Below the pieces are notes generated by a model. It was not told where the DNA came from, did not search any database, and saw only the letters and a list, made by a program, of their open reading frames with translations. The translations under genes and the position numbers were made by a program. This document shows positions 3,484 through 40,040 of a DNA stretch of 64,000 bases, one piece after another. The DNA is from Lachnospiraceae bacterium (GTDB lineage: Bacteria; Bacillota; Clostridia; Lachnospirales; Lachnospiraceae), in assembly GCA_017553505.1 (NCBI GenBank), contig JAFZLD010000027.1, positions 33,119-97,118 of the forward strand, written 5' to 3'. Each line of letters starts with the position of its first letter. Positions within the stretch are counted from its first letter, which is position 1.

Positions 3484-3592
3484 CGGAGTGGGATTATTCC
3501 CGCTCCGATGTTGTGCGTTATAAAGAATGGGGTTGTTCTTTTGCTTTTTGTAACATCTTTCTTAGCCAAGGAAGTTATTGCAAAAAGCAAAA
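3484..3592 (+). promoter_or_regulatory. two stem-loops in the secY-adk spacer (10-bp stem 3484-3507; 12-bp perfect stem 3539-3550/3581-3592)
   Basis: CGGAGTGGGA-TTAT-TCCCGCTCCG; TTTTGCTTTTTG...CAAAAAGCAAAA ends 3 nt before the adk AGGAGG. Confidence 0.4.
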
Positions 3593-3612
3593 ATCAGGAG
3601 GTTATAGGTGTT

Positions 3613-15657: not shown

Positions 15658-16563
15658 ATGAATATCAATCAGCTTAAATATGTTCTTGAAGTTGCGGCAT
15701 CGTCGTCCATGCGTGAGGCCGCTACCAGGCTTTTTGTAACGCAGCCTGCATTATCTGCAAGCATCAGAGAACTGGAAGAGGAACTTGGTATCCACATATT
15801 TAACAGGACAAATAAAGGTATTTCGCTTACTCCCGAAGGACGCGAGTTTATTGTCTATGCCAAAAAGTCGGTGGGACAGTACGCAATACTTGAGGACAGA
15901 TATTTATCGGCCAACAGAAACAGAGAGAGATTCTCGGTATCGACGCAACATTATAATTTCGCGATACGTTCTTTTACCGAGGTAATCAGGAAGTTCAGCC
16001 CGGAGAAGTTTCTTTTTTCGATACATGAGACGAAGACCAGAGATGTGCTGGAGCATGTTAGAGATATGAAGAGCGAGGTCGGAATAGTGTCGTATTCGAG
16101 CGCCAATGAAGCTGTGCTTAAAAAACTTTTGAAGGAGTATCAGCTCGACTTTGTACCGCTTATGACTCGTGCGGCATACGCGTATGTGTGGAAGGATCAC
16201 CCGTATGCGGGCAGGGACGTGGTTTCGCTTGAAGAATTAAAGAAGTTTCCCTGCGTAGCCTTCGACCAGAGCGATGACAGCAATTTCTATTTAACGGAAG
16301 AAGCGATGGCGGATTATGACTTTGAGAAAATGATTCGCTCGGACGACAGAGCCACCACCATGGAGATTCTGGCAGAGCTAAACGGCTACTCCATAGGCTC
16401 AGGCATGCTTTCGGGGGATGACGTAATACTGCAAGGTCTTACGGCCATCAAGCTCAAAGAAGAAGATCCGCTTATCATCGGCTACATCACGAGAAGCGGC
16501 GCCGAACTGTCCAAGTACGGTCAGGAATACGTAAATGACCTGCAGAGATTTCGCGAGATATAG
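15658..16563 (+). CDS. LysR-family transcriptional regulator
   Basis: 301 aa; N-terminal wHTH MNINQLKYVLEVAASSSMREAATRLFVTQPALSASIRELEEELG plus a LysR substrate-binding-type C-terminus. Confidence 0.9.
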   Translation: MNINQLKYVLEVAASSSMREAATRLFVTQPALSASIRELEEELGIHIFNRTNKGISLTPEGREFIVYAKKSVGQYAILEDRYLSANRNRERFSVSTQHYNFAIRSFTEVIRKFSPEKFLFSIHETKTRDVLEHVRDMKSEVGIVSYSSANEAVLKKLLKEYQLDFVPLMTRAAYAYVWKDHPYAGRDVVSLEELKKFPCVAFDQSDDSNFYLTEEAMADYDFEKMIRSDDRATTMEILAELNGYSIGSGMLSGDDVILQGLTAIKLKEEDPLIIGYITRSGAELSKYGQEYVNDLQRFREI

Positions 16564-16588
16564 AAAGAAAAGTACGTGACAAACTGAC

Positions 16589-16630
16589 ATCCTCGGTGAT
16601 AACCGCAACTTATCGCCGAGGATTAATTTT
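16589..16630 (+). terminator. intrinsic terminator after the LysR gene
   Basis: ATCCTCGGTGATAA-CCGCAAC-TTATCGCCGAGGAT (14-bp stem with one G-U) followed by TAATTTT. Confidence 0.75.
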
Positions 16631-16743
16631 ACAGAATTTTCAAACTCGGAGTACAAGTGTATTATAAATCCAACGGGTGAGGCAATCACCCACACAGCGG
16701 TTGATACAGCCGCCACCGAATCTACAGAAAGGAAGAAGAAAAG

Positions 16744-16854
16744 ATGAAGACTATGACTATGAGACGAATGTACGGTATGTGCTGTGGCATGTGTTGTTGT
16801 ATAGACCAATCGAATAAACCCGGAGATAAACGTCTCAAATCAGTTACCTTGTAA
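16744..16854 (+). CDS. candidate Met/Cys-rich leader peptide (36 codons)
   Basis: Hand translation gives MKTMTMRRMYGMCCGMCCCIDQSNKPGDKRLKSVTL. AGGAAG-type RBS at 16730-16737. 6 Met and 5 Cys fall in the first 19 codons and none afterwards. Below the ORF-track length cutoff. Confidence 0.5.
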   Translation: MKTMTMRRMYGMCCGMCCCIDQSNKPGDKRLKSVTL

Positions 16855-16893
16855 TCCGAAAGAAGGATTATTGTTAATATGCAATTTTAAGGT

Positions 16894-16920
16894 GTCTGCG
16901 AGAGCGCAGACTATTTTTTT
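16894..16920 (+). terminator. intrinsic terminator in the operon leader (candidate attenuator)
   Basis: GTCTGCG-AGAG-CGCAGAC followed by TATTTTTTT; lies 40 nt after the uORF stop and 46 nt before the ATG of the binding-protein gene. Confidence 0.8.
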
Positions 16921-16966
16921 GCACTTTTTTAGGAAAAATAACACAGAACAGAGAGGATTAAGAATC

Positions 16967-17917
16967 ATGAAAAAATCAATTATCAAAAAGTTTTTGGCAG
17001 CAACAGTACTTGCAAGCGTGGTATTAACAGGATGCGGAAAGGCTTCCGATACCAAGGAGACAGCAAGTAACTCAGGATCCACCGAAGTAATCGGAGCATC
17101 CACAGAAGCATCCGTTGAAGCTTCCGCAGAAGGAACAGACGGCGTAAGAAAAATCGTAGTATCTCACTCCGCAGCATCATGGCCTTACAATGTACTTACC
17201 GCTGAAGGCGAGAGCGACGGTTACGAAGTAGCCGTACTTAAGGCGGTTGACGAGCTCCTTCCCCAGTACGAGTTCGTATTTGAAGCAACAGGCGACGACA
17301 GTGACCTTTTAATCGGTGTTCAGACCGGTAAGTACCAGATCGGTACCAAGGGCGCATGGTGGACAGAGGATCGTTCCACTAAGTACCTCTTCCCCGAGCA
17401 CTACATCGCAGCATCCGTAACAGGTATCGCATTCAGAACAGAGAACGCAGATAAGATTAAGGATATGCAGTCATTTGCCGATTTCTCAGGCTTGCTTGTA
17501 CCCCTTGCACCTCAGAACGCACAGTACACCATCATTGAGAACTACAACAAGAACAACCCCGATCATCAGATTATCTTAGAGCCCGCAGACAACTTCTCCA
17601 ACTCCGAGCAGTATCAGTGGGTACTTGAAGGAAGATATGATGCAGCATTCGTAATCCAGACTGCTTTCGGCGCTATCGTAGAAGCTGAAGACGGTGAATA
17701 TCATCAGTATGCAGACCAGCTTTCCTATGTTCCTTACGAAGCAATTCCTACCTATCCTTTATTCACCCTCGGCGAAGACGAGCTTGCTAAGGCTTATGAC
17801 GAAGCATGGGAGAAGCTCCTTGAGAACGGCACTCTTGCAGAACTTCAGGATAAGTACTTCGGCTTCAACGTATATGACCTCGTTCCCGAAGGATATCAGA
17901 TTGGCGACGAACTGTAA
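16967..17917 (+). CDS. amino-acid ABC transporter substrate-binding lipoprotein (family 3 SBP type)
   Basis: Start at MKKSIIKKFLAATVLASVVLTGCGKAS (lipobox LTGC), not the ORF-track TTG at 16871; first gene of the transporter set. Confidence 0.85.
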   Translation: MKKSIIKKFLAATVLASVVLTGCGKASDTKETASNSGSTEVIGASTEASVEASAEGTDGVRKIVVSHSAASWPYNVLTAEGESDGYEVAVLKAVDELLPQYEFVFEATGDDSDLLIGVQTGKYQIGTKGAWWTEDRSTKYLFPEHYIAASVTGIAFRTENADKIKDMQSFADFSGLLVPLAPQNAQYTIIENYNKNNPDHQIILEPADNFSNSEQYQWVLEGRYDAAFVIQTAFGAIVEAEDGEYHQYADQLSYVPYEAIPTYPLFTLGEDELAKAYDEAWEKLLENGTLAELQDKYFGFNVYDLVPEGYQIGDEL

Positions 17918-20196: not shown

Positions 20197-21231
20197 ATGG
20201 CTAAAGAATATACACCCTACGAGAGAATTAGGGCTATGGTGGAAGGACGCGAAGTAGACCGTCCCGGTGTCAGTGTATGGAGACACTTCCATGCAGACGA
20301 CAGAGTAGTAAGCGATTCGGTTAAGGCTCACATCGCATTTCAGGAAAGAAACCAGTGGGATTTCATTAAGATAATGGCTAACGGTATCCACATTCAGGAG
20401 CAGTACGGAGCCAAGATTCGCTGGTCAAGAGACGGTATCGAATTCCCCACCACACTTGCAAGATACATTAACAGCCCCAAGGAGTTCAGGAATCTTAAAA
20501 AGGTTGATATTCATACCGGCGCTGTGGCAAGAGAGGTAGAAGTTGCCAAGCGTCTCAAAGAATACTACGACGGCAAAGTTCCGGTTGTGGCAACTGTTTT
20601 TTCGCCACTCACTTATGCTCAGGAACTTTATAACGGATTTCAGGATCCCGCCCGTTTCATTCCCCTTGTAAGAGAATACGGGGATGACCTCAAAGAAGGT
20701 CTTAAAGTTCTTACGGAAGTAACCCGCGATATTGTTGAAGCATATGCAAATGCAGGTGTCGACGGTATCTTCTATTCAACTCAGTTTGCCAACGATTCAC
20801 AGATTACACCCGAAGAATATGATGAGTTTGCCATTAAGAGCGACCTTGAAGGCTTTGAGCCCGCTATCGGCAAGACATGGTTTAATATCCTCCATATTCA
20901 CGGCGATTCAAATCTGTATTTTGATAAATTCCTTGATTTTCCTTTTGAAGCTTTAAACTGGCAGTCAACGGTTACAAACGTATCACTTTCCGATGCTGCA
21001 AGAAAGACCAACAAGATATTAATCGGCGGTATCGACCGAGAGAAGGGCTTTTCTTTCCCTACAAGAGAAGAACTGACCGAGAAAATCAGAAAGAACGTTA
21101 CGGATGCCATTGCTTCGGTACCTGCCAACAGATTGGTTATCGCACCCGGATGCTCACTTCCTACCGAACTTTCCGACTATAGGTTTAATGTACTCAAAGA
21201 CGTTATTGATGAATTATATCCCAACACCTAA
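20197..21231 (+). CDS. uroporphyrinogen decarboxylase (URO-D)/MtaA-family protein, function unknown
   Basis: 344 aa; N-terminal VDRPGVSVWRHF and C-terminal IAPGCSLPTE resemble the URO-D/methylcobamide methyltransferase fold family; called by eye. Confidence 0.7.
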   Translation: MAKEYTPYERIRAMVEGREVDRPGVSVWRHFHADDRVVSDSVKAHIAFQERNQWDFIKIMANGIHIQEQYGAKIRWSRDGIEFPTTLARYINSPKEFRNLKKVDIHTGAVAREVEVAKRLKEYYDGKVPVVATVFSPLTYAQELYNGFQDPARFIPLVREYGDDLKEGLKVLTEVTRDIVEAYANAGVDGIFYSTQFANDSQITPEEYDEFAIKSDLEGFEPAIGKTWFNILHIHGDSNLYFDKFLDFPFEALNWQSTVTNVSLSDAARKTNKILIGGIDREKGFSFPTREELTEKIRKNVTDAIASVPANRLVIAPGCSLPTELSDYRFNVLKDVIDELYPNT

Positions 21232-22270: not shown

Positions 22271-23260
22271 ATGTCATCCAAGAGAGACCTTGTTTTAAAA
22301 GCATTTAACAACGAAAAAACCGACCGTGTGCCGGTAGGCTTCTGGTTCCATTATGCCAAGGACGAATCCGTACCTCAGAGCGATGAAGTTATAAAAATAA
22401 ACTATAAGGGTCACGTGAAGTTTATCGAGGACTGGGACCCCGACTATGTAAAGATTATGAGCGACGGCTTCTTTAACTATCCCGGACTTCCCGACGAGCC
22501 CATAAAGACTGCAGCCGATTTAAAGAAGATTAAGGCAGGAAAGCCCGAGACTCTTAAGTGGATTGACGATCAGGTGGCGCATGTTAAGAATATTACCTCC
22601 AAGTACGGCAACGATATTGTCACTATCTACAACGTTTTCTCACCCGCAACATACCTTAATATTGGAATTTCTGCATTTACCTTCGACAGTATCGTGAAGC
22701 TTTACAACGAAGATGCTGAAGCGTTAAAAGAAGCATTACTTACTATCGCCGAGGACATCAAGATTCTTGCCGAGAGAGTAATCAAAGAAGGAGGCACAGA
22801 CGGCATCTACTTCAGCGTCGGTAACTTTAACGGAATAAGTAAGAGCGAATACTTAAAGTTCATTGCACCCGCTGAAATCGCAGTTCTCGAAGCCGCCAAG
22901 TCAGTAAGCGACAACAGCATGCTTCACATTTGCGGCTTTGACGGCAGAAGAAACGACCTAACAACATATGCTGATTACCCTGTAAAGGTTATCAACTGGG
23001 CAGCAGGCGTAGAGCGCGTATCACTTGAAGAAGGCAAGAAAATATTCGGCGGTCGCGCAGTGGTAGGCGGATTTGCCAACACTGCAGACGGTGTACTTTA
23101 TAAAGGCACCAAAGAACAGATTCAAGCAGAAGCCAAGAAGATTTTAAGCACGGCAGGCACAAGAGGAGTTATCCTCGGCGCAGACTGCACTATCCCCCGC
23201 GACACACCCATTGAGCATCTTAAGTGGGTACGTGAGGCGGCCGAAGAATTCGGAGCATAA
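22271..23260 (+). CDS. second URO-D/MtaA-family protein, function unknown
   Basis: 329 aa; TDRVPVGFWFHY and ILGADCTIPRDTP; distant paralog of 20197-21231. Confidence 0.7.
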   Translation: MSSKRDLVLKAFNNEKTDRVPVGFWFHYAKDESVPQSDEVIKINYKGHVKFIEDWDPDYVKIMSDGFFNYPGLPDEPIKTAADLKKIKAGKPETLKWIDDQVAHVKNITSKYGNDIVTIYNVFSPATYLNIGISAFTFDSIVKLYNEDAEALKEALLTIAEDIKILAERVIKEGGTDGIYFSVGNFNGISKSEYLKFIAPAEIAVLEAAKSVSDNSMLHICGFDGRRNDLTTYADYPVKVINWAAGVERVSLEEGKKIFGGRAVVGGFANTADGVLYKGTKEQIQAEAKKILSTAGTRGVILGADCTIPRDTPIEHLKWVREAAEEFGA

Positions 23261-24051: not shown

Positions 24052-24085
24052 AAGAATTACATTGGGGTACCAAAGGAGAAAGAAA

Positions 24086-25210
24086 ATGGCGGATACGAGT
24101 TACGATATAGAAACCCGATGTTGTCACTACGTGACAGACATTGTAAACGGACATCCTCACGGAGCGGTCAGCGTTCCGATTTATCAGACGGCTACATTTG
24201 CACACAGGGAGATAGGAGAGCATCCTACGAAGGATACGTTCACGTACAGTCGCGGAAGTAATCCGACAAGAAGGGAGCTTGAGGATACTCTTGCATCTTT
24301 GGAAGACGCGGGCGACTGCGTGGCTACGGCTACCGGAATGGCGGCCATAGCGCTTGTGCTGGAGCTTTTTACTGCAGGAGATCACGTGATATGCACTTAC
24401 GATCTTTATGGCGGAGCGGTAAGAATCTTCGGAGAAATAGCGCCGAAGCGCCAAGTGTCATTTAGCTATGTGGATACCGGAGATATCGCTGCGGTTCGTG
24501 AGGCAATTCGTCCGAATACAAAGGCGCTTTATATCGAGACTCCCAGCAATCCGACCATGAAGGTTACAGACCTTCGCGAGATTAAAAAACTTGCCGATGA
24601 ATACAATTTGCTGCTGATTGTAGACAATACATTCTTAACTCCTTACTTTCAAAGGCCGCTTGAGCTTGGTGCCGATATCGTGGTACACAGCGGCACCAAG
24701 TATCTTGCAGGTCACAACGATACCTGTGCAGGCTTTATCTGCACCTCTAAGGAGCGTAAGGACCTTGCCGAAAGAATCCGTTACCTTTGTATGAGCTTCG
24801 GTCCTACGCTTGCACCAATTGATTCATTCCTTGTTCTTCGCGGTATTAAGACGCTTGCTCTTCGCATGGAGAGACAGTCGGAAAATGCCAAGGTGATAGC
24901 GGAATGGCTTAAGAAACACAAGAAGGTTAAAAAGGTCTATTACGCCGGTTATGGCGCGATGATTTCTTTTGAAACCGATACGGAGAAGACTGCGTTAGAT
25001 ACGCTTCACAAGGTTAAGCTGGTGATTTTCGCTGAAAGCCTCGGCGGTGTGGAAAGTTTGATTACCTATCCGATGATTCAGACACACCGTGAACTGCCCA
25101 AGGAGCAAAGGGAGCTTTTGGGCATCAATGAGAAGTTTTTGAGATTGTCTGTGGGCATCGAGAATGTGAACGACATTATTGGGGACCTTGAGCAGGCACT
25201 GGTTGATTAA
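24086..25210 (+). CDS. Cys/Met-metabolism PLP enzyme (cystathionine beta-lyase/gamma-synthase family)
   Basis: Start at MADTSYDIE (ATG 24086, AAGGAG upstream); PLP-lysine motif HSGTKYLAGHND; ESLGGVESL. Confidence 0.85.
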   Translation: MADTSYDIETRCCHYVTDIVNGHPHGAVSVPIYQTATFAHREIGEHPTKDTFTYSRGSNPTRRELEDTLASLEDAGDCVATATGMAAIALVLELFTAGDHVICTYDLYGGAVRIFGEIAPKRQVSFSYVDTGDIAAVREAIRPNTKALYIETPSNPTMKVTDLREIKKLADEYNLLLIVDNTFLTPYFQRPLELGADIVVHSGTKYLAGHNDTCAGFICTSKERKDLAERIRYLCMSFGPTLAPIDSFLVLRGIKTLALRMERQSENAKVIAEWLKKHKKVKKVYYAGYGAMISFETDTEKTALDTLHKVKLVIFAESLGGVESLITYPMIQTHRELPKEQRELLGINEKFLRLSVGIENVNDIIGDLEQALVD

Positions 25211-25230: not shown

Positions 25231-26415
25231 ATGGGATATGATTTTGATAAGATTACGGACAGAAAGGGCACTAAGTGCTTGAAATATGACTTCGCGACGG
25301 CAAGGGGCAAGAAAGAAGGCCTGATTTCCATGTGGGTGGCGGATATGGATTTTCCTACCGCACCGGAGATTCTTGAGAGCCTTCGCGGCGTGGTGGACCA
25401 TGGAATATTCGGCTATACCGAATCGGACGACGCGTATTACGAAAGCGTTGCCGACTGGTATCGTACACACTTTGAATGGGAGCCGCGAAAAGAATGGCTG
25501 ATTAAAACTCCCGGAGTGGTATTCGCGCTTTCGGCGGCCATCAGAGCCTTTACCAAAGAAGGCGAGGCGGTACTGATTCAGCAGCCCGTTTACTACCCTT
25601 TCAGCGAGGTAATAGTCGATAACGGAAGAAAACCGGTAGACAGCCCATTGGTTCTTAAGGGCGACCACTACGAAATAGACTTTGATGATTTCGAAAGAAA
25701 GGTTATAGAAGAGCGCGTAAAGCTTTTCATCCTCTGCAGCCCTCACAACCCTGTGGGACGCGTATGGAAGGAGTGGGAACTTCGCCGAATCGGTGAAATT
25801 TGCGTGGCGCATGACGTGATAGTGTGCTCGGATGAGATTCACAGCGACTTTGTGTGGGAAGGGAATAAGCATACAGTATTTGCATCCCTGGATCCTGCTT
25901 TTGCCGAAAGAAGCATTACCTGTACGGCGCCGAGTAAGACCTTTAACCTTGCGGGATTGCAGGCTTCCAACATATTTGTCCCCAATCGCAGGTTAAGACT
26001 TGCACTCAAAAAAAGTATTGCCGCGACGGGCTACAGCCAGCTTAATACCATGGCACTTTTTGCCTGCGAGGCCGCGTATACCCACGGAGATAAGTGGCTT
26101 GGTGAGCTTAAAGAGTATCTGCAGGGAAATATAAAGTATTTTAACGATTTTTTGGAGCGCGAGTTACCGATGCTTCACCTGATTAAGACCGAAGGAACCT
26201 ACCTTCTCTGGGTTGATTTCAGGGAACTTGGGCTTACGGAACTTGAGCTTGAGGATTTGATAGTTAACCGTGCCGGCCTGTGGCTTGACAGCGGCGCAAT
26301 GTTTGGTAAAGTCGGAGAGGGCTTTGAAAGATTTAACATCGCCTGCCCGAGGTCTGTGCTGGCAGCAGCGCTTGAGCAGCTTAAGAGAGCCGTTCTTTCG
26401 CTGAAGGCATCATAA
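25231..26415 (+). CDS. PatB/MalY-type aminotransferase class I/II C-S lyase
   Basis: DKITDRKGTKCLKYDF N-terminus typical of MalY/PatB; PLP-lysine motif APSKTFNLAGL. Confidence 0.85.
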   Translation: MGYDFDKITDRKGTKCLKYDFATARGKKEGLISMWVADMDFPTAPEILESLRGVVDHGIFGYTESDDAYYESVADWYRTHFEWEPRKEWLIKTPGVVFALSAAIRAFTKEGEAVLIQQPVYYPFSEVIVDNGRKPVDSPLVLKGDHYEIDFDDFERKVIEERVKLFILCSPHNPVGRVWKEWELRRIGEICVAHDVIVCSDEIHSDFVWEGNKHTVFASLDPAFAERSITCTAPSKTFNLAGLQASNIFVPNRRLRLALKKSIAATGYSQLNTMALFACEAAYTHGDKWLGELKEYLQGNIKYFNDFLERELPMLHLIKTEGTYLLWVDFRELGLTELELEDLIVNRAGLWLDSGAMFGKVGEGFERFNIACPRSVLAAALEQLKRAVLSLKAS

Positions 26416-39618: not shown

Positions 39619-39704
39619 AGCGTGTGTATATCCGTGTAAGACGCGAATCCGCGTGAAACTGTCTTAGAATGATATGTGTGAAAACATATTTGAGGAGGAA
39701 GATT

Positions 39705-40040
39705 ATGAACGATTACATTGCATACTGCGGTCTTGATTGTGAAGCCTGCGAGGCGAGAATCGCTACAGTTAACGACGACGACAACTTGCGCGAAAAGGTG
39801 GCCAAAGAATGGTCTACGCTCAACGGGGTTACGATTACACCCGAGATGATTAACTGCGTCGGCTGTCGGATTCCGGGACCCAAGACGCCTTACTGTGAGA
39901 GCATGTGCAACATCAGACAGTGCGCCATGGCCAAGGATTACGAAACTTGCGGAAAATGCGCGGAAATGATGACTTGCAAGAAGGTCGGCGCTATAATTAG
40001 GGGTAATGAAGAGGCTCTTCGGAATCTCAAAAAGGAATAA
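39705..40040 (+). CDS. DUF3795-like cysteine-rich protein
   Basis: Start at MNDYIAYCGLDCEACE (ATG 39705, GGAGGA upstream); further CVGCR, CNIRQC, CGKCAEMMTC clusters. Confidence 0.65.
   Translation: MNDYIAYCGLDCEACEARIATVNDDDNLREKVAKEWSTLNGVTITPEMINCVGCRIPGPKTPYCESMCNIRQCAMAKDYETCGKCAEMMTCKKVGAIIRGNEEALRNLKKE

Follow-up and report, generated by a model that had tools for sequence, protein, structure and literature searches.

A candidate leader-peptide attenuator with methionine and cysteine codons ahead of a Lachnospiraceae binding-protein and C-S lyase operon, with counterparts in other Firmicutes

Genes and features of the locus

The window analysed here is the whole stretch of 64,000 nucleotides taken from a Lachnospiraceae contig, in which a short upstream open reading frame (uORF) lies between a LysR gene and an operon that encodes a transport system and two C-S lyases. 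The genes and features around the uORF are as follows.

15658-16563, LysR gene, with its own terminator at 16589-16623
16637-16665, plus strand, candidate sigma-70-type promoter (TTTTCA, 17-nt spacer, TATTAT) for the leader and operon transcript
16675-16691 (GGGTGAGGCAATCACCC) and 16697-16713 (GCGGTTGATACAGCCGC), plus strand, two short G+C-rich hairpins of the 5' UTR
16730-16735, plus strand, Shine-Dalgarno (SD) site AGGAAG of the uORF, with the ATG 8 nt further downstream
16744-16854, plus strand, leader-peptide ORF of 36 codons plus TAA, product MKTMTMRRMYGMCCGMCCCIDQSNKPGDKRLKSVTL
16777-16800, plus strand, regulatory codon cluster M12-C-C-G-M-C-C-C19 (ATGTGCTGTGGCATGTGTTGTTGT)
16894-16920, plus strand, intrinsic terminator found by consensus scan (7-bp stem GUCUGCG/CGCAGAC, loop AGAG, UA, U7)
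16950-17917, plus strand, first structural gene, a solute-binding family 3 lipoprotein (Pfam SBP_bac_3; start 16967), with its SD AGAGAGGA
from 17962, plus strand, two permeases, ABC ATPase, URO-D/MtaA-like protein and GFO/IDH/MocA oxidoreductase
to 26415, plus strand, second URO-D/MtaA-like protein, SDR, Cys/Met-metabolism PLP enzyme and PatB-family C-S lyase
24062-25210, plus strand, C-S lyase, Cys_Met_Meta_PP
25231-26415, plus strand, C-S lyase, PatB family

The candidate promoter, about 80 nt upstream of the uORF start, was the sole promoter-like site within 16300-17200, a scan in which the interval between the terminator and the binding-protein gene had none; its hexamers and spacing are identical in the related locus L002. 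Both 5' UTR hairpins were predicted in the MFE as well as the centroid folds, and L002 has a counterpart for the one at 16675-16691 only.

The nearest solved structures to the binding protein are amino-acid-binding proteins, including B. subtilis YtmK, and the ABC system as a whole is a binding-protein-dependent importer (SBP_bac_3 plus BPD_transp_1), not an exporter. The two C-S lyases announced by the original prediction are real and form genes 9 and 10 of the operon. Judged from these annotations, a cystine-type binding protein together with two C-S lyases would fit control by Met and Cys. The operon core that recurs behind the leaders of L003, L004, L007, L008, L009, L058 and L076 consists of a URO-D-like protein, the binding protein, permeases, the ATPase and Cys_Met_Meta_PP, with or without a PatB-like protein. 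Leaders, riboswitches and ABC transporters were unmentioned in a word search of a paper on corrinoid-dependent clusters.

Codon content of the leader ORF

The 36-codon frame with its AGGAAG-type ribosome-binding site was present in the letters as originally predicted, and so were the codon counts: 11 of the first 19 codons specify Met (n = 6) or Cys (n = 5), and none of the last 17 (codons 20-36) does. The Met codons outside the cluster at 16777-16800 stand at positions 4, 6 and 9. The uORF is an extreme Met/Cys outlier in the window, with a codon bias far beyond chance: of the 1111 ORFs of 15 aa or more that the six frames of the 64-kb window contain, this one holds 11 Met plus Cys in its densest 19-residue stretch and the runner-up 7, and the maximum in shuffled windows (n = 20) was 5-7. 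The uORF had no match in NCBIfam, and the exact peptide was absent from a collection of 15 billion proteins.

The terminator claimed for the interval between the uORF and the first operon gene is likewise there, and clean. Its hairpin (GTCTGCG-AGAG-CGCAGAC, 16894-16911; stem energy -11.5 kcal/mol) begins 39 nt past the uORF stop codon and is followed by TA and then T7 at 16914-16920.

Conservation in related operons

The check proposed for the prediction was whether orthologous leaders also carry a Met/Cys-rich uORF and a terminator, with lack of conservation as its refutation, and it was clearly passed: Met/Cys-rich uORFs of at least 13 distinct peptide lineages head orthologous operons. A purine-rich SD (AGGAGG, AAGGAG, GGAGG or similar) precedes the start codon in 13/13 lineages, and an intrinsic terminator follows the uORF in 12/13; SD, Met/Cys-rich uORF and terminator occur together in L001-L009, L011, L014-L018, L032-L034, L058 and L076. 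The hosts belong to Lachnospiraceae, Acetatifactor, Phascolarctobacterium and an Enterococcaceae genome, and the identity of the binding protein among uORF-bearing operons goes down to about 50%. Across the non-redundant leaders (n = 13), Met makes up 13.2% and Cys 16.1% of residues, vs. 2.8% and 1.4% in the proteins of the window, and an 'MCC' core recurs in distant leaders. The uORF always lies on the operon strand at the head of the operon, even after gene rearrangement, when it stands ahead of URO-D or the ATPase instead of the binding protein. When small ORFs with at least 7 Met plus Cys in 12 residues were counted at 91 loci, 17 were on the operon strand and 0 on the other. One further Met/Cys-rich leader precedes an O-acetylhomoserine sulfhydrylase/CysK operon.

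Within the clade, the length, frame and stop position of the uORF are kept in L001, L002 and L014-L016, and the stop at this position is written as TAA, TGA (L001) or TAG (L013). Codons M9, M12, M16 and C19 are invariant and those for Cys13, Cys14 and Cys18 vary only synonymously (TGC/TGT), whereas 17 other codon columns of the 36 change amino acid; the L003 clade has in-frame indels of 3 and 6 nt in the Met/Cys cluster. As read from the alignments, this pattern of substitution is what regulatory codons would produce, and it differs from that expected if a functional peptide or an RNA motif alone were under selection. Constraint on the RNA is visible in the 3' half of the uORF and in the spacer behind it, with invariant stems and variable loops.

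About 30 more distant orthologous operons had no such uORF, and L031 and the Cys-poor short ORFs of L029 and L051 were without an obvious terminator. An Rfam search of orthologous operons lacking the uORF revealed no riboswitch, and thus no sign that the leader had replaced a known sulfur riboswitch. The whole window gave no match to Rfam 15 at the gathering threshold, the region 16560-17000 searched at E ≤ 10 gave chance-level matches only (E above 4), and in 34 related loci nothing overlapped the leaders, which rules out S-box, T-box and the known leader families. The uORFs are almost never annotated by gene callers, with a handful of nameless entries among the 15 billion proteins: a profile of eight leaders matched eight short nameless proteins, all from the same clades, and a second profile that included newer leaders matched no protein.

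Predicted RNA structures in the window

Folding of the leader placed the following elements between the Met/Cys cluster and the terminator.

16822-16836, plus strand, hairpin H1 inside the uORF (GGAGAU-AAAC-GUCUC), predicted in all folds
16841-16850, plus strand, candidate antiterminator 5' strand CAGUUACCUU, the last uORF codons, ending 1 nt before the stop
16852-16870, plus strand, hairpin H3 (UAAUCC-GAAAGAA-GGAUUA), which holds the uORF stop codon
16889-16898, plus strand, candidate antiterminator 3' strand AAGGUGUCUG

The stem of H1 is invariant in clade A, synonymous sites included, while its loop codon is AAA, TTA or GTA. H3, nested inside the candidate antiterminator, keeps its stem in the same clade and varies in its loop, and the stop changes from TAA to TGA or TAG convert A-U pairs of H3 to G-U pairs. 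The terminator is also invariant in clade A except for L013, whose 3' arm has G in place of A and hence a U-G pair.

The pairing of GUUACCUU (16843-16850) with AAGGUGUC (16889-16896) in the original prediction, 7 of 8 positions including one G-U, was reproduced and extends to 9 of 10 positions between 16841-16850 and 16889-16898, again including one G-U and with one U-U mismatch. The terminator 5' arm begins with the final 5 nt of 16889-16898, and the candidate antiterminator forms no more than 3-4 pairs with this arm. Its 5' strand is invariant in clade A; L012, a metagenomic relative, has AAGTTG in the 3' strand, which breaks one pair. The clade of the window offers no variation informative for covariation of the antiterminator and terminator helices.

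On the proposal that this weak antiterminator is freed by stalling, the folds pointed both ways. The nascent-transcript MFE has the right geometry, in that the candidate antiterminator forms with the ribosome at Cys19 and is masked once the ribosome is at codon 30 or the stop, but equilibrium folding run with the ribosome footprint masked favoured the terminator, with a probability of 0.99 at every ribosome position from Cys13 on, and the strength of the antiterminator was indistinguishable from that of same-composition shuffles in two tests (p = 0.48 and 0.42). One fold rivals the terminator at equilibrium, in which UGUGUUGUUGUAUAGACC (16790-16807) pairs with it. This pairing of the Cys-codon run was considered as the main mechanism and rejected, because it could form only while the ribosome has yet to reach the Cys codons, the energy difference is no more than 2.5 kcal/mol, and L002 lacks it. 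The folds gave no stable pairing between the Cys tract and the downstream SD (16950-16957).

Antiterminators in related leaders

A clear antiterminator overlapping the end of the uORF is found in the relatives only. In the L003 clade the antiterminator hairpin spans the uORF end and the stop codon and pairs CAG(A)GUCUG with the entire terminator arm; the nascent-transcript MFE of the window has the same topology. Compensatory differences separate L003 and L092 (UUUCC...GGAAA) from L093 (UUUCA...UGAAA). In L011 a perfect 10-nt complement joins CUCCCGGGCA in the uORF to UGCCCGGGAG in the terminator arm (p = 0.003), and the antiterminator of L008 was also stronger than in shuffles (p = 0.017). 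For L008, L009 and L011, the terminator arm was computed to be sequestered only with the ribosomal A site inside the Met/Cys cluster; for L004, L007 and L058, the computed pre-pairing was independent of ribosome position. The two shuffle tests were significant or near-significant only for L003, L008 and L011 and marginal for L004 and L009, and a combined test over 11 leaders gave p = 0.012. In three related clades the folding models clearly predict that the position of the ribosome decides between terminator and antiterminator, and one of these clades shows compensatory changes.

Proposed mechanism and alternative explanations

Because a Met/Cys-rich uORF followed by a terminator recurs in many gut and rumen relatives, the ribosome most likely senses a shortage of Met/Cys, and we regard the element as probably a ribosome-mediated leader-peptide transcription attenuator that reads the supply of Met and Cys together. 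The original prediction of a trp/his-type layout is supported by the conservation, by the codon-level pattern and by the switch in relatives. What the DNA shows directly is the uORF with its codon bias, the terminator, and the retention of these features at the head of orthologous operons; we infer ribosome stalling, the kinetic competition between the folds of this window and the response to Cys and Met.

Transcription would start near 16637-16665, and a ribosome would load at the SD and translate the 36-codon leader. With Met-tRNA and Cys-tRNA plentiful, it would reach the stop codon (16852-16854), cover CAGUUACCUU (16841-16850) and melt the stop-codon hairpin, leaving the terminator 5' arm free, so that the hairpin 16894-16911 would form and transcription would end at the U-tract. 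With either charged tRNA scarce, the ribosome would stall in the cluster 16777-16800 or at one of the Met codons before it, leaving 30 nt or more between its front edge and 16841. The unmasked 3' end of the leader could then pair with AAGGUGUCUG (16889-16898) once that emerges, a pairing that would occupy the greater part of the terminator 5' arm ahead of 3' arm synthesis. RNA polymerase would then continue into the operon, whose products would import a sulfur compound and cleave it at a C-S bond.

An unlikely alternative, and the one that survives best, is that the uORF does sense Met/Cys by stalling but that the signal bypasses the proposed antiterminator helix. The hairpin 16894-16920 would then be a constitutive, partly leaky terminator, and the signal would act on the translation or the stability of the downstream message, by way of Rho or NusG, or by long-range pairing of the Cys-codon run with the terminator. 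The folding of the window agrees with this, since its antiterminator does not outperform shuffled sequence, the terminator prevails at equilibrium throughout and the sole fold that competes there pairs 16790-16807 with the terminator; in addition, mycobacterial polycysteine sORFs affect translation, not termination (10.1101/834739), and terminators are missing behind the short ORFs of L031 and the Cys-poor L029 and L051. Yet 12 of the 13 lineages have a terminator behind the uORF, explicit ribosome-position-dependent antiterminators are predicted in L003, L008, L009 and L011, the nascent-transcript fold of the window shares the topology of the L003 clade, and the long-range pairing of the Cys codons is not conserved in L002.

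We consider it improbable that the uORF encodes a functional Cys-rich peptide, either metal- or redox-active or a precursor modified by operon enzymes (the methyltransferase-like, oxidoreductase and PLP enzymes being candidates), with the terminator merely setting a high peptide-to-enzyme ratio as in many precursor-peptide clusters. The order of peptide gene, hairpin terminator, and enzyme and ABC genes does resemble such clusters, and the Cys clusters are conserved. However, conservation is limited to Met/Cys in peptides of 16-54 residues that are without leader/core organisation, amino acids change at 17 of 36 positions within one clade, Met enrichment has no obvious role in such a peptide, and a similar uORF heads a plain cysteine/homocysteine biosynthesis operon. 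The ABC system imports and does not export, no peptide-maturase family is found among the operon neighbours, the rest of which are general metabolic enzymes, and the uORF is without an NCBIfam match, its relatives being nameless in the protein collection. Compared with RiPP precursors, e.g., of the SCIFF type, the locus lacks the conserved peptide with dedicated maturase and exporter.

Least probable of all is a conserved RNA motif in an incidental frame, i.e., a riboswitch or UGY/AUG triplets bound by a protein or ligand in the way TRAP binds (G/U)AG repeats, since the recurrent AUGUGYUGY triplet repeats, the synonymous choice ATGTGCTGT...ATGTGTTG common to four lineages and the RNA-level constraint on the uORF 3' half are outweighed by an SD, a properly spaced ATG and an in-frame stop in every lineage, a stop position kept using all three stop codons, synonymous variation of Cys codons within clades, the lack of any Rfam family match even at E up to 10, and leaders that are mostly Met (L009) or contain only Cys (L031) and so share no common RNA word.

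Novelty and significance

Leader peptides that sense amino acids are, to our knowledge, uncommon in Firmicutes, whose sulfur amino-acid genes are controlled mostly by T-boxes, S-boxes and protein regulators. A Met+Cys leader in this phylum was undescribed in the open-access full-text literature searched, an absence that is not proof, and no description of a Met-codon leader was found there either; together with the Rfam results, this agrees with the earlier remark that a Met/Cys leader peptide would be unusual in Firmicutes. We lean towards the view, with somewhat less confidence than for attenuation at the locus itself, that these leaders constitute a class of attenuators sensing both Met and Cys, hitherto undescribed and widespread among Firmicutes (Lachnospiraceae, Negativicutes, Enterococcaceae), at the head of a ribosome-read sulfur regulon. 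If so, they would be, within the literature searched, the first leader peptides with Met as regulatory codons and the first terminator-based Cys attenuators beyond the predicted alpha-proteobacterial cysS motif. Members of this small regulon would be the conserved, uncharacterised operon of binding protein, MtaA-like URO-D and C-S lyases and, at least in one genome, an operon for O-acetylhomoserine sulfhydrylase and CysK.

For Firmicutes, a Met+Cys leader kept across lineages would amount to a third RNA-level route; it would show that Met codons are able to act as regulatory codons, and how two end products can be integrated by one leader, as an OR gate for sulfur amino-acid shortage. It predicts induction of the operon by Met/Cys starvation and thereby offers a handle on an uncharacterised operon of gut and rumen Lachnospiraceae; such induction would imply that the operon salvages a sulfur compound yielding both amino acids. 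Their small size, modularity and diversity, along with clean switches in at least three clades, make the leaders directly testable, and they could serve as Cys/Met-responsive parts for anaerobes. Since such uORFs are rarely annotated, a scan for codon bias plus terminator could find more elements of this kind.

Comparison with known systems

The classical multivalent attenuators of enterobacteria are those of trp, his, thr (Thr and Ile codons) and ilvGMEDA (Ile, Val and Leu codons) (Yanofsky; Turnbough 2019, as cited in 10.1101/834739). As in these, an intrinsic terminator precedes the first structural gene and a predicted alternative helix overlaps the end of the ORF, so that ribosome position would decide termination, and one leader would sense several amino acids as in thr and ilvGMEDA. 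Unlike them, the amino acids sensed here would be Met and Cys, the operon would serve uptake and catabolic salvage, not biosynthesis, the design would comprise two alternative structures with no separate 1:2 pause hairpin evident, and the antiterminator of the window is weak. The host also differs, being a Firmicute (Lachnospiraceae), in which amino-acid operons are normally under T-box, S-box or protein regulators.

Closer in codon content are the mycobacterial polycysteine leaderless sORFs ('Cys ribulon') of Canestrari et al. (10.1101/834739) and the Cys-codon leaders predicted in Actinobacteria by Seliverstov et al. 2005 (PMC1262725). They share with the present leaders the Cys-codon runs in a short ORF upstream of cysteine-related operons, stalling on Cys codons as the proposed signal, and several loci that may respond together. 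The mycobacterial mRNAs are leaderless and have no terminators, translation being controlled via an unmasked downstream SD (10.1101/834739), whereas here the promoter-like site about 80 nt upstream and the SD define a 5' UTR, a canonical intrinsic terminator separates the uORF from the gene, the Cys codons are interspersed with Met codons and the sequences are unrelated.

The uORFC-8-2 motif upstream of cysS in Rhodobacterales (Brewer et al. 2021, PMC8632094) resembles the present leaders in that it is predicted to act by ribosome-mediated attenuation, with in-frame Cys codons ahead of an intrinsic terminator. It is a conserved RNA motif with two tandem Cys codons only and no Met enrichment, and it controls a tRNA synthetase gene in alpha-proteobacteria (PMC8632094). 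The leaders described here differ in having 3-8 Cys plus 2-8 Met codons (L031 is without internal Met), in heading different operons and in conserving no RNA sequence across clades.

With the S-box (SAM-I) and Met/Cys T-box leaders of Firmicutes (Grundy and Henkin 1998, as cited in PMC1262725) the present element has in common a 5' leader with a terminator and sulfur amino-acid supply as the presumed signal, and T-boxes likewise read tRNA charging. Unlike both, it is without an aptamer or tRNA-binding structure, the sensor would be the translating ribosome, and a single leader would integrate two amino acids.

Organization of the leader region

Every statement of the original prediction about the leader sequence was reproduced on re-examination of the window, which contains the following elements:

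15658-16563, LysR-family gene, with its own terminator at 16589-16623
16637-16665, promoter-like site (TTTTCA, 17-nt spacer, TATTAT), the single such site within 16300-17200
16730-16735, SD site AGGAAG upstream of the uORF
16744-16854, uORF of 36 codons, product MKTMTMRRMYGMCCGMCCCIDQSNKPGDKRLKSVTL
16894-16911, hairpin GTCTGCG-AGAG-CGCAGAC of the leader intrinsic terminator, followed by TA and T7 (16914-16920)
16967, start of the first structural gene

The terminator hairpin starts 39 nt after the uORF stop codon. Codons 1-19 of the uORF include six Met and five Cys, while the final 17 have neither. Among 1111 six-frame ORFs (≥ 15 aa) of the 64-kb window, the richest 19-residue segment is that of the uORF (11 Met + Cys vs. 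7 for the runner-up), and the maximum in shuffled versions of the window (n = 20) was ≤ 7, so chance is ruled out as the source of this bias. The runner-up, a 123-aa ORF at 39669-40040 (+), carries CxxC-type motifs and resembles an ordinary small metal-binding protein more than a leader.

Downstream operon

Ten genes, all co-directional, follow the leader, in this order:

from 16967, family-3 solute-binding lipoprotein
next, two permeases and an ABC ATPase
20197-21231, URO-D/MtaA-like protein
next, GFO/IDH/MocA oxidoreductase
22271-23260, second URO-D/MtaA-like protein
next, SDR oxidoreductase
24062-25210, Cys/Met-metabolism PLP enzyme
25231-26415, PatB-family C-S lyase

The closest solved structures to the binding protein are amino-acid-binding proteins, B. 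subtilis YtmK among them, and several solved relatives presumably bind cystine or glutathione, which we take as a lead. The URO-D-like proteins show distant kinship to methylcobalamin:CoM methyltransferase. Judging from gene content and these relatives, the operon looks like an importer combined with a C-S cleavage/salvage system for some sulfur compound. Counterparts of the URO-D/MtaA-like genes were located in four related loci (L003 2878-3882, L008 2881-3885, L009 2759-3835, and L010 2900-3901), and tight linkage with a family-3 binding protein was seen in Lachnospiraceae, Negativicutes, Enterococcaceae, and Streptococcus. No corrinoid protein was found near them in these loci; they may be thiol methyltransferases of sulfur salvage. 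In L010, a bifunctional glutamate-cysteine ligase/ATP-grasp (GshF-type) gene comes after the operon.

Related leaders in other genomes

Orthologous loci were collected from species-representative genomes with the binding protein as query (L001-L011) and from metagenomes with an alignment of nine binding proteins (L012-L091, n = 80). The test put forward with the original prediction, conservation of a Met/Cys-rich uORF plus terminator in orthologous leaders, came out in favor of a leader-peptide attenuator: strong-SD uORFs of this type occur in many clades, and in every tabulated leader an intrinsic terminator lies 35-105 nt past the uORF stop.

Leader peptides of the window clade and related loci
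Window clade, or clade A (L001, L002, L014-L017): the window peptide and variants of it, at the position seen in the window
L003: MRQTKAATMMNLMCMEGMCMCMCCMSCFATPK...
L004/L005: MEKRNVMIVEIREMCVKAMCCQEMCCSTHCCCR
L006/L032-L034: MEKQNRTNKMTMGCCKGMCCYMCCCCAPEK
L007 (Acetatifactor): MKRSIDFEEKKMCMDRMCCKNMCCRSMYCCYK
L008 (Phascolarctobacterium, Negativicutes): ...MMLRVMCMCMPCCTM...
L009 (Enterococcaceae): ...KMMPKNMMCMGPSC...
L011: ...EYCMCCRM... (MFNIKANKSEYCMCCRMF...); leader 1421-1540, downstream genes to 6400
L018: ...RMCCCSRMPMCRMMCC...
L058: MNRMIPMMCCCMESGG
L076: ...CQMCRCYLCAEMYMC

Where gene order is rearranged, the uORF stays at the head of the operon, preceding the URO-D gene in L003, L009, L058, and L076 and the ATPase gene in L008. 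Of small ORFs with ≥ 7 Met + Cys in 12 residues, the 91 loci have 17 on the operon strand vs. 0 on the opposite strand, and Met (start excluded) and Cys make up 13.2% and 16.1% of the non-redundant leaders (n = 13), vs. 2.8% and 1.4% of the window's proteins. The L011 leader heads genes for an O-acetylhomoserine/serine sulfhydrylase-type PLP enzyme, a CysK-type enzyme, and another family-3 ABC importer, which hints that such leaders may form a small regulon beyond one operon. Relatives of the uORF in a collection of 15 billion proteins were few, all without a name.

The uORF is missing in L010 (Streptococcus) and in ~30 loci that are more distant or AT-rich and have sufficient upstream sequence, and no riboswitch was found in its place there. 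Three of the more distant orthologous operons have short SD-led ORFs: that of L031 (3683-3766) contains six Cys but no Met after the start, and those of L029 (3839-3919) and L051 (3839-3901) contain a few Cys and a common pattern (..HVNYCY..SRH.IC.). All three lack an obvious terminator and could represent leaders in decay or variants that act on translation.

Several other features were noted near the leaders. In most clades other than the window clade, an AT-rich palindrome (~aATTCATA, ~19 nt, TATGAAt) closely follows the -10 box and precedes the SD of the uORF (L003 ~2541-2570, L004 ~3575-3607; also L006, L007, L029, L031, L051, L058, and L076, within 120 nt upstream of each uORF). It could be a repressor/activator operator, which would place the operon under dual control together with the leader, or form a 5' RNA hairpin. 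The window clade lacks it and has instead a LysR gene next to the leader and a pair of G+C-rich 5' hairpins (16675-16713). In one clade only, the leader terminator is separated from the binding-protein gene by a Clostridiales-1 RNA (Rfam RF01699, 52.5 bits; L006 3869-3950, L032 4861-4942, L033 499-580, L034 4861-4942). A lysine riboswitch (RF00168, 109.6 bits) at L051 3414-3597 (- strand) serves a divergent neighbor gene and is unrelated to the leader. The contig closest to the window, L001 (DBWM01000055.1; binding-protein identity 97%, leader near-identical), is labeled 'Myxococcales bacterium UBA1238'; as every other relative is from Lachnospiraceae or other Firmicutes, it is probably mis-binned or its MAG mislabeled.

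Proposed terminator/antiterminator switch

A translating ribosome was modeled by masking the mRNA as far as 12 nt past the first A-site nucleotide, and the remainder was folded. In L008, L009, and L011, equilibrium folding paired the terminator 5' arm upstream only with the A site in the Met/Cys cluster, and the terminator formed once the ribosome was past it. The uORF of L011 contains a perfect 10-nt complement of the terminator arm (CUCCCGGGCA, shuffle p = 0.003); for L008 the corresponding p was 0.017. The nascent transcript of the L003 clade folds into a long hairpin, with the stop codon inside its inner stem, in which the entire terminator arm is paired to CAG(A)GUCUG of uORF codons 38-41; in L093, from this clade, the inner stem differs in sequence (UUUCA...UGAAA vs. 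UUUCC...GGAAA) with complementarity kept. On reaching the stop codon, a ribosome would melt the hairpin; one stalled at the cluster would leave it intact. Across 11 independent leaders, the exposed-segment shuffle test gave a combined p = 0.012 and the simple duplex test a combined p = 0.057. Our reading of these models is that the class would operate by classical attenuation.

With the ribosome at Cys19, the window's nascent-transcript MFE has the L003-clade topology: hairpin H1 (16822-16836), then a helix of CAGUUACCUU (16841-16850) and AAGGUGUCUG (16889-16898) that encloses the stop-codon hairpin H3 (16852-16870). In the terminator arm this helix occupies G94, C96, U97, and G98 (16894, 16896-16898); it loses its outer pairs with the ribosome at codon 30 and is gone with the ribosome at the stop codon. 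The originally predicted 7-of-8 pairing between the uORF end and the terminator arm is found within this longer helix, to which CAG:CUG adds further pairing. The helix is weak: at equilibrium the terminator prevails in every state from Cys13 onward, and arm pre-pairing is about equal to that of shuffled sequences (p = 0.48 and 0.42). In the metagenomic locus L012, one antiterminator pair is broken by a sequence change. Classical attenuators depend on kinetic, not equilibrium, competition, so the equilibrium result does not refute attenuation here, and we infer a candidate antiterminator of the right geometry with a weak helix. A stalling sensor coupled in another way (translational, Rho-dependent, or through pairing of the Cys-codon run with the terminator) is a possible alternative in the window. 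A probable dual Met/Cys leader-peptide attenuator is the description that suits the element best, with the coupling step in the window as the main uncertainty.

Conservation of the leader peptide

Within the window clade the uORF is constantly 36 codons long, M1, M9, M12, M16, and C19 do not vary, and Cys13, Cys14, and Cys18 show only TGC/TGT exchanges; 17 other codon columns have amino-acid changes. The stop codon keeps its position as TAA (window), TGA (L001), or TAG (L013). Nucleotide-level conservation extends over the spacer and the 3' third of the uORF, where changes are restricted to predicted loops (AAA/TTA/GTA in H1; the H3 loop also varies), and the stop-codon differences turn A-U pairs of H3 into G-U pairs. 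The Met/Cys cluster of the L003 clade shows in-frame 3- and 6-nt indels, among sequences found via called ORFs and hence biased to intact frames. This codon, frame, stop, and loop-confined variation fits a leader peptide, with selection apparently keeping regulatory codons, frame, and stop together with RNA structure over the ORF end, and is at odds with a functional peptide or an untranslated RNA motif. That the uORF encodes a Cys-rich functional peptide or precursor is unlikely for further reasons: conservation is limited to Met/Cys, leaders range from 16 to 54 residues, the operon's ABC system is an importer, a maturase is absent, and the L011 leader precedes a plain biosynthetic operon. 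A triplet-repeat RNA bound by a protein or ligand is likewise unlikely, as SD, ATG, and in-frame stop are maintained throughout, one site shows all three stop codons, and no RNA word is common to the leaders.

Comparison with known systems

Leader-peptide attenuation is textbook regulation, and multivalent leaders exist (thr, ilv). The Cys-codon leaders of mycobacteria are leaderless, translational, and without a terminator (10.1101/834739), whereas the window has an SD and an intrinsic terminator; that 2020 paper states that cysteine uORF-mediated attenuation was previously undescribed. Cys-codon leaders, also without terminators, were predicted in other Actinobacteria (PMC1262725), and a Rhodobacterales motif ahead of cysS combines two Cys codons with a terminator (PMC8632094). 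The leader matches no Rfam family, and the open-access literature searched held no report of Met as regulatory codons or of a Met/Cys leader in Firmicutes, in line with the expectation that one would be unusual there, though it may be described elsewhere. The window element represents a conserved class across several Firmicute families, of a known kind and in a variant that appears new.
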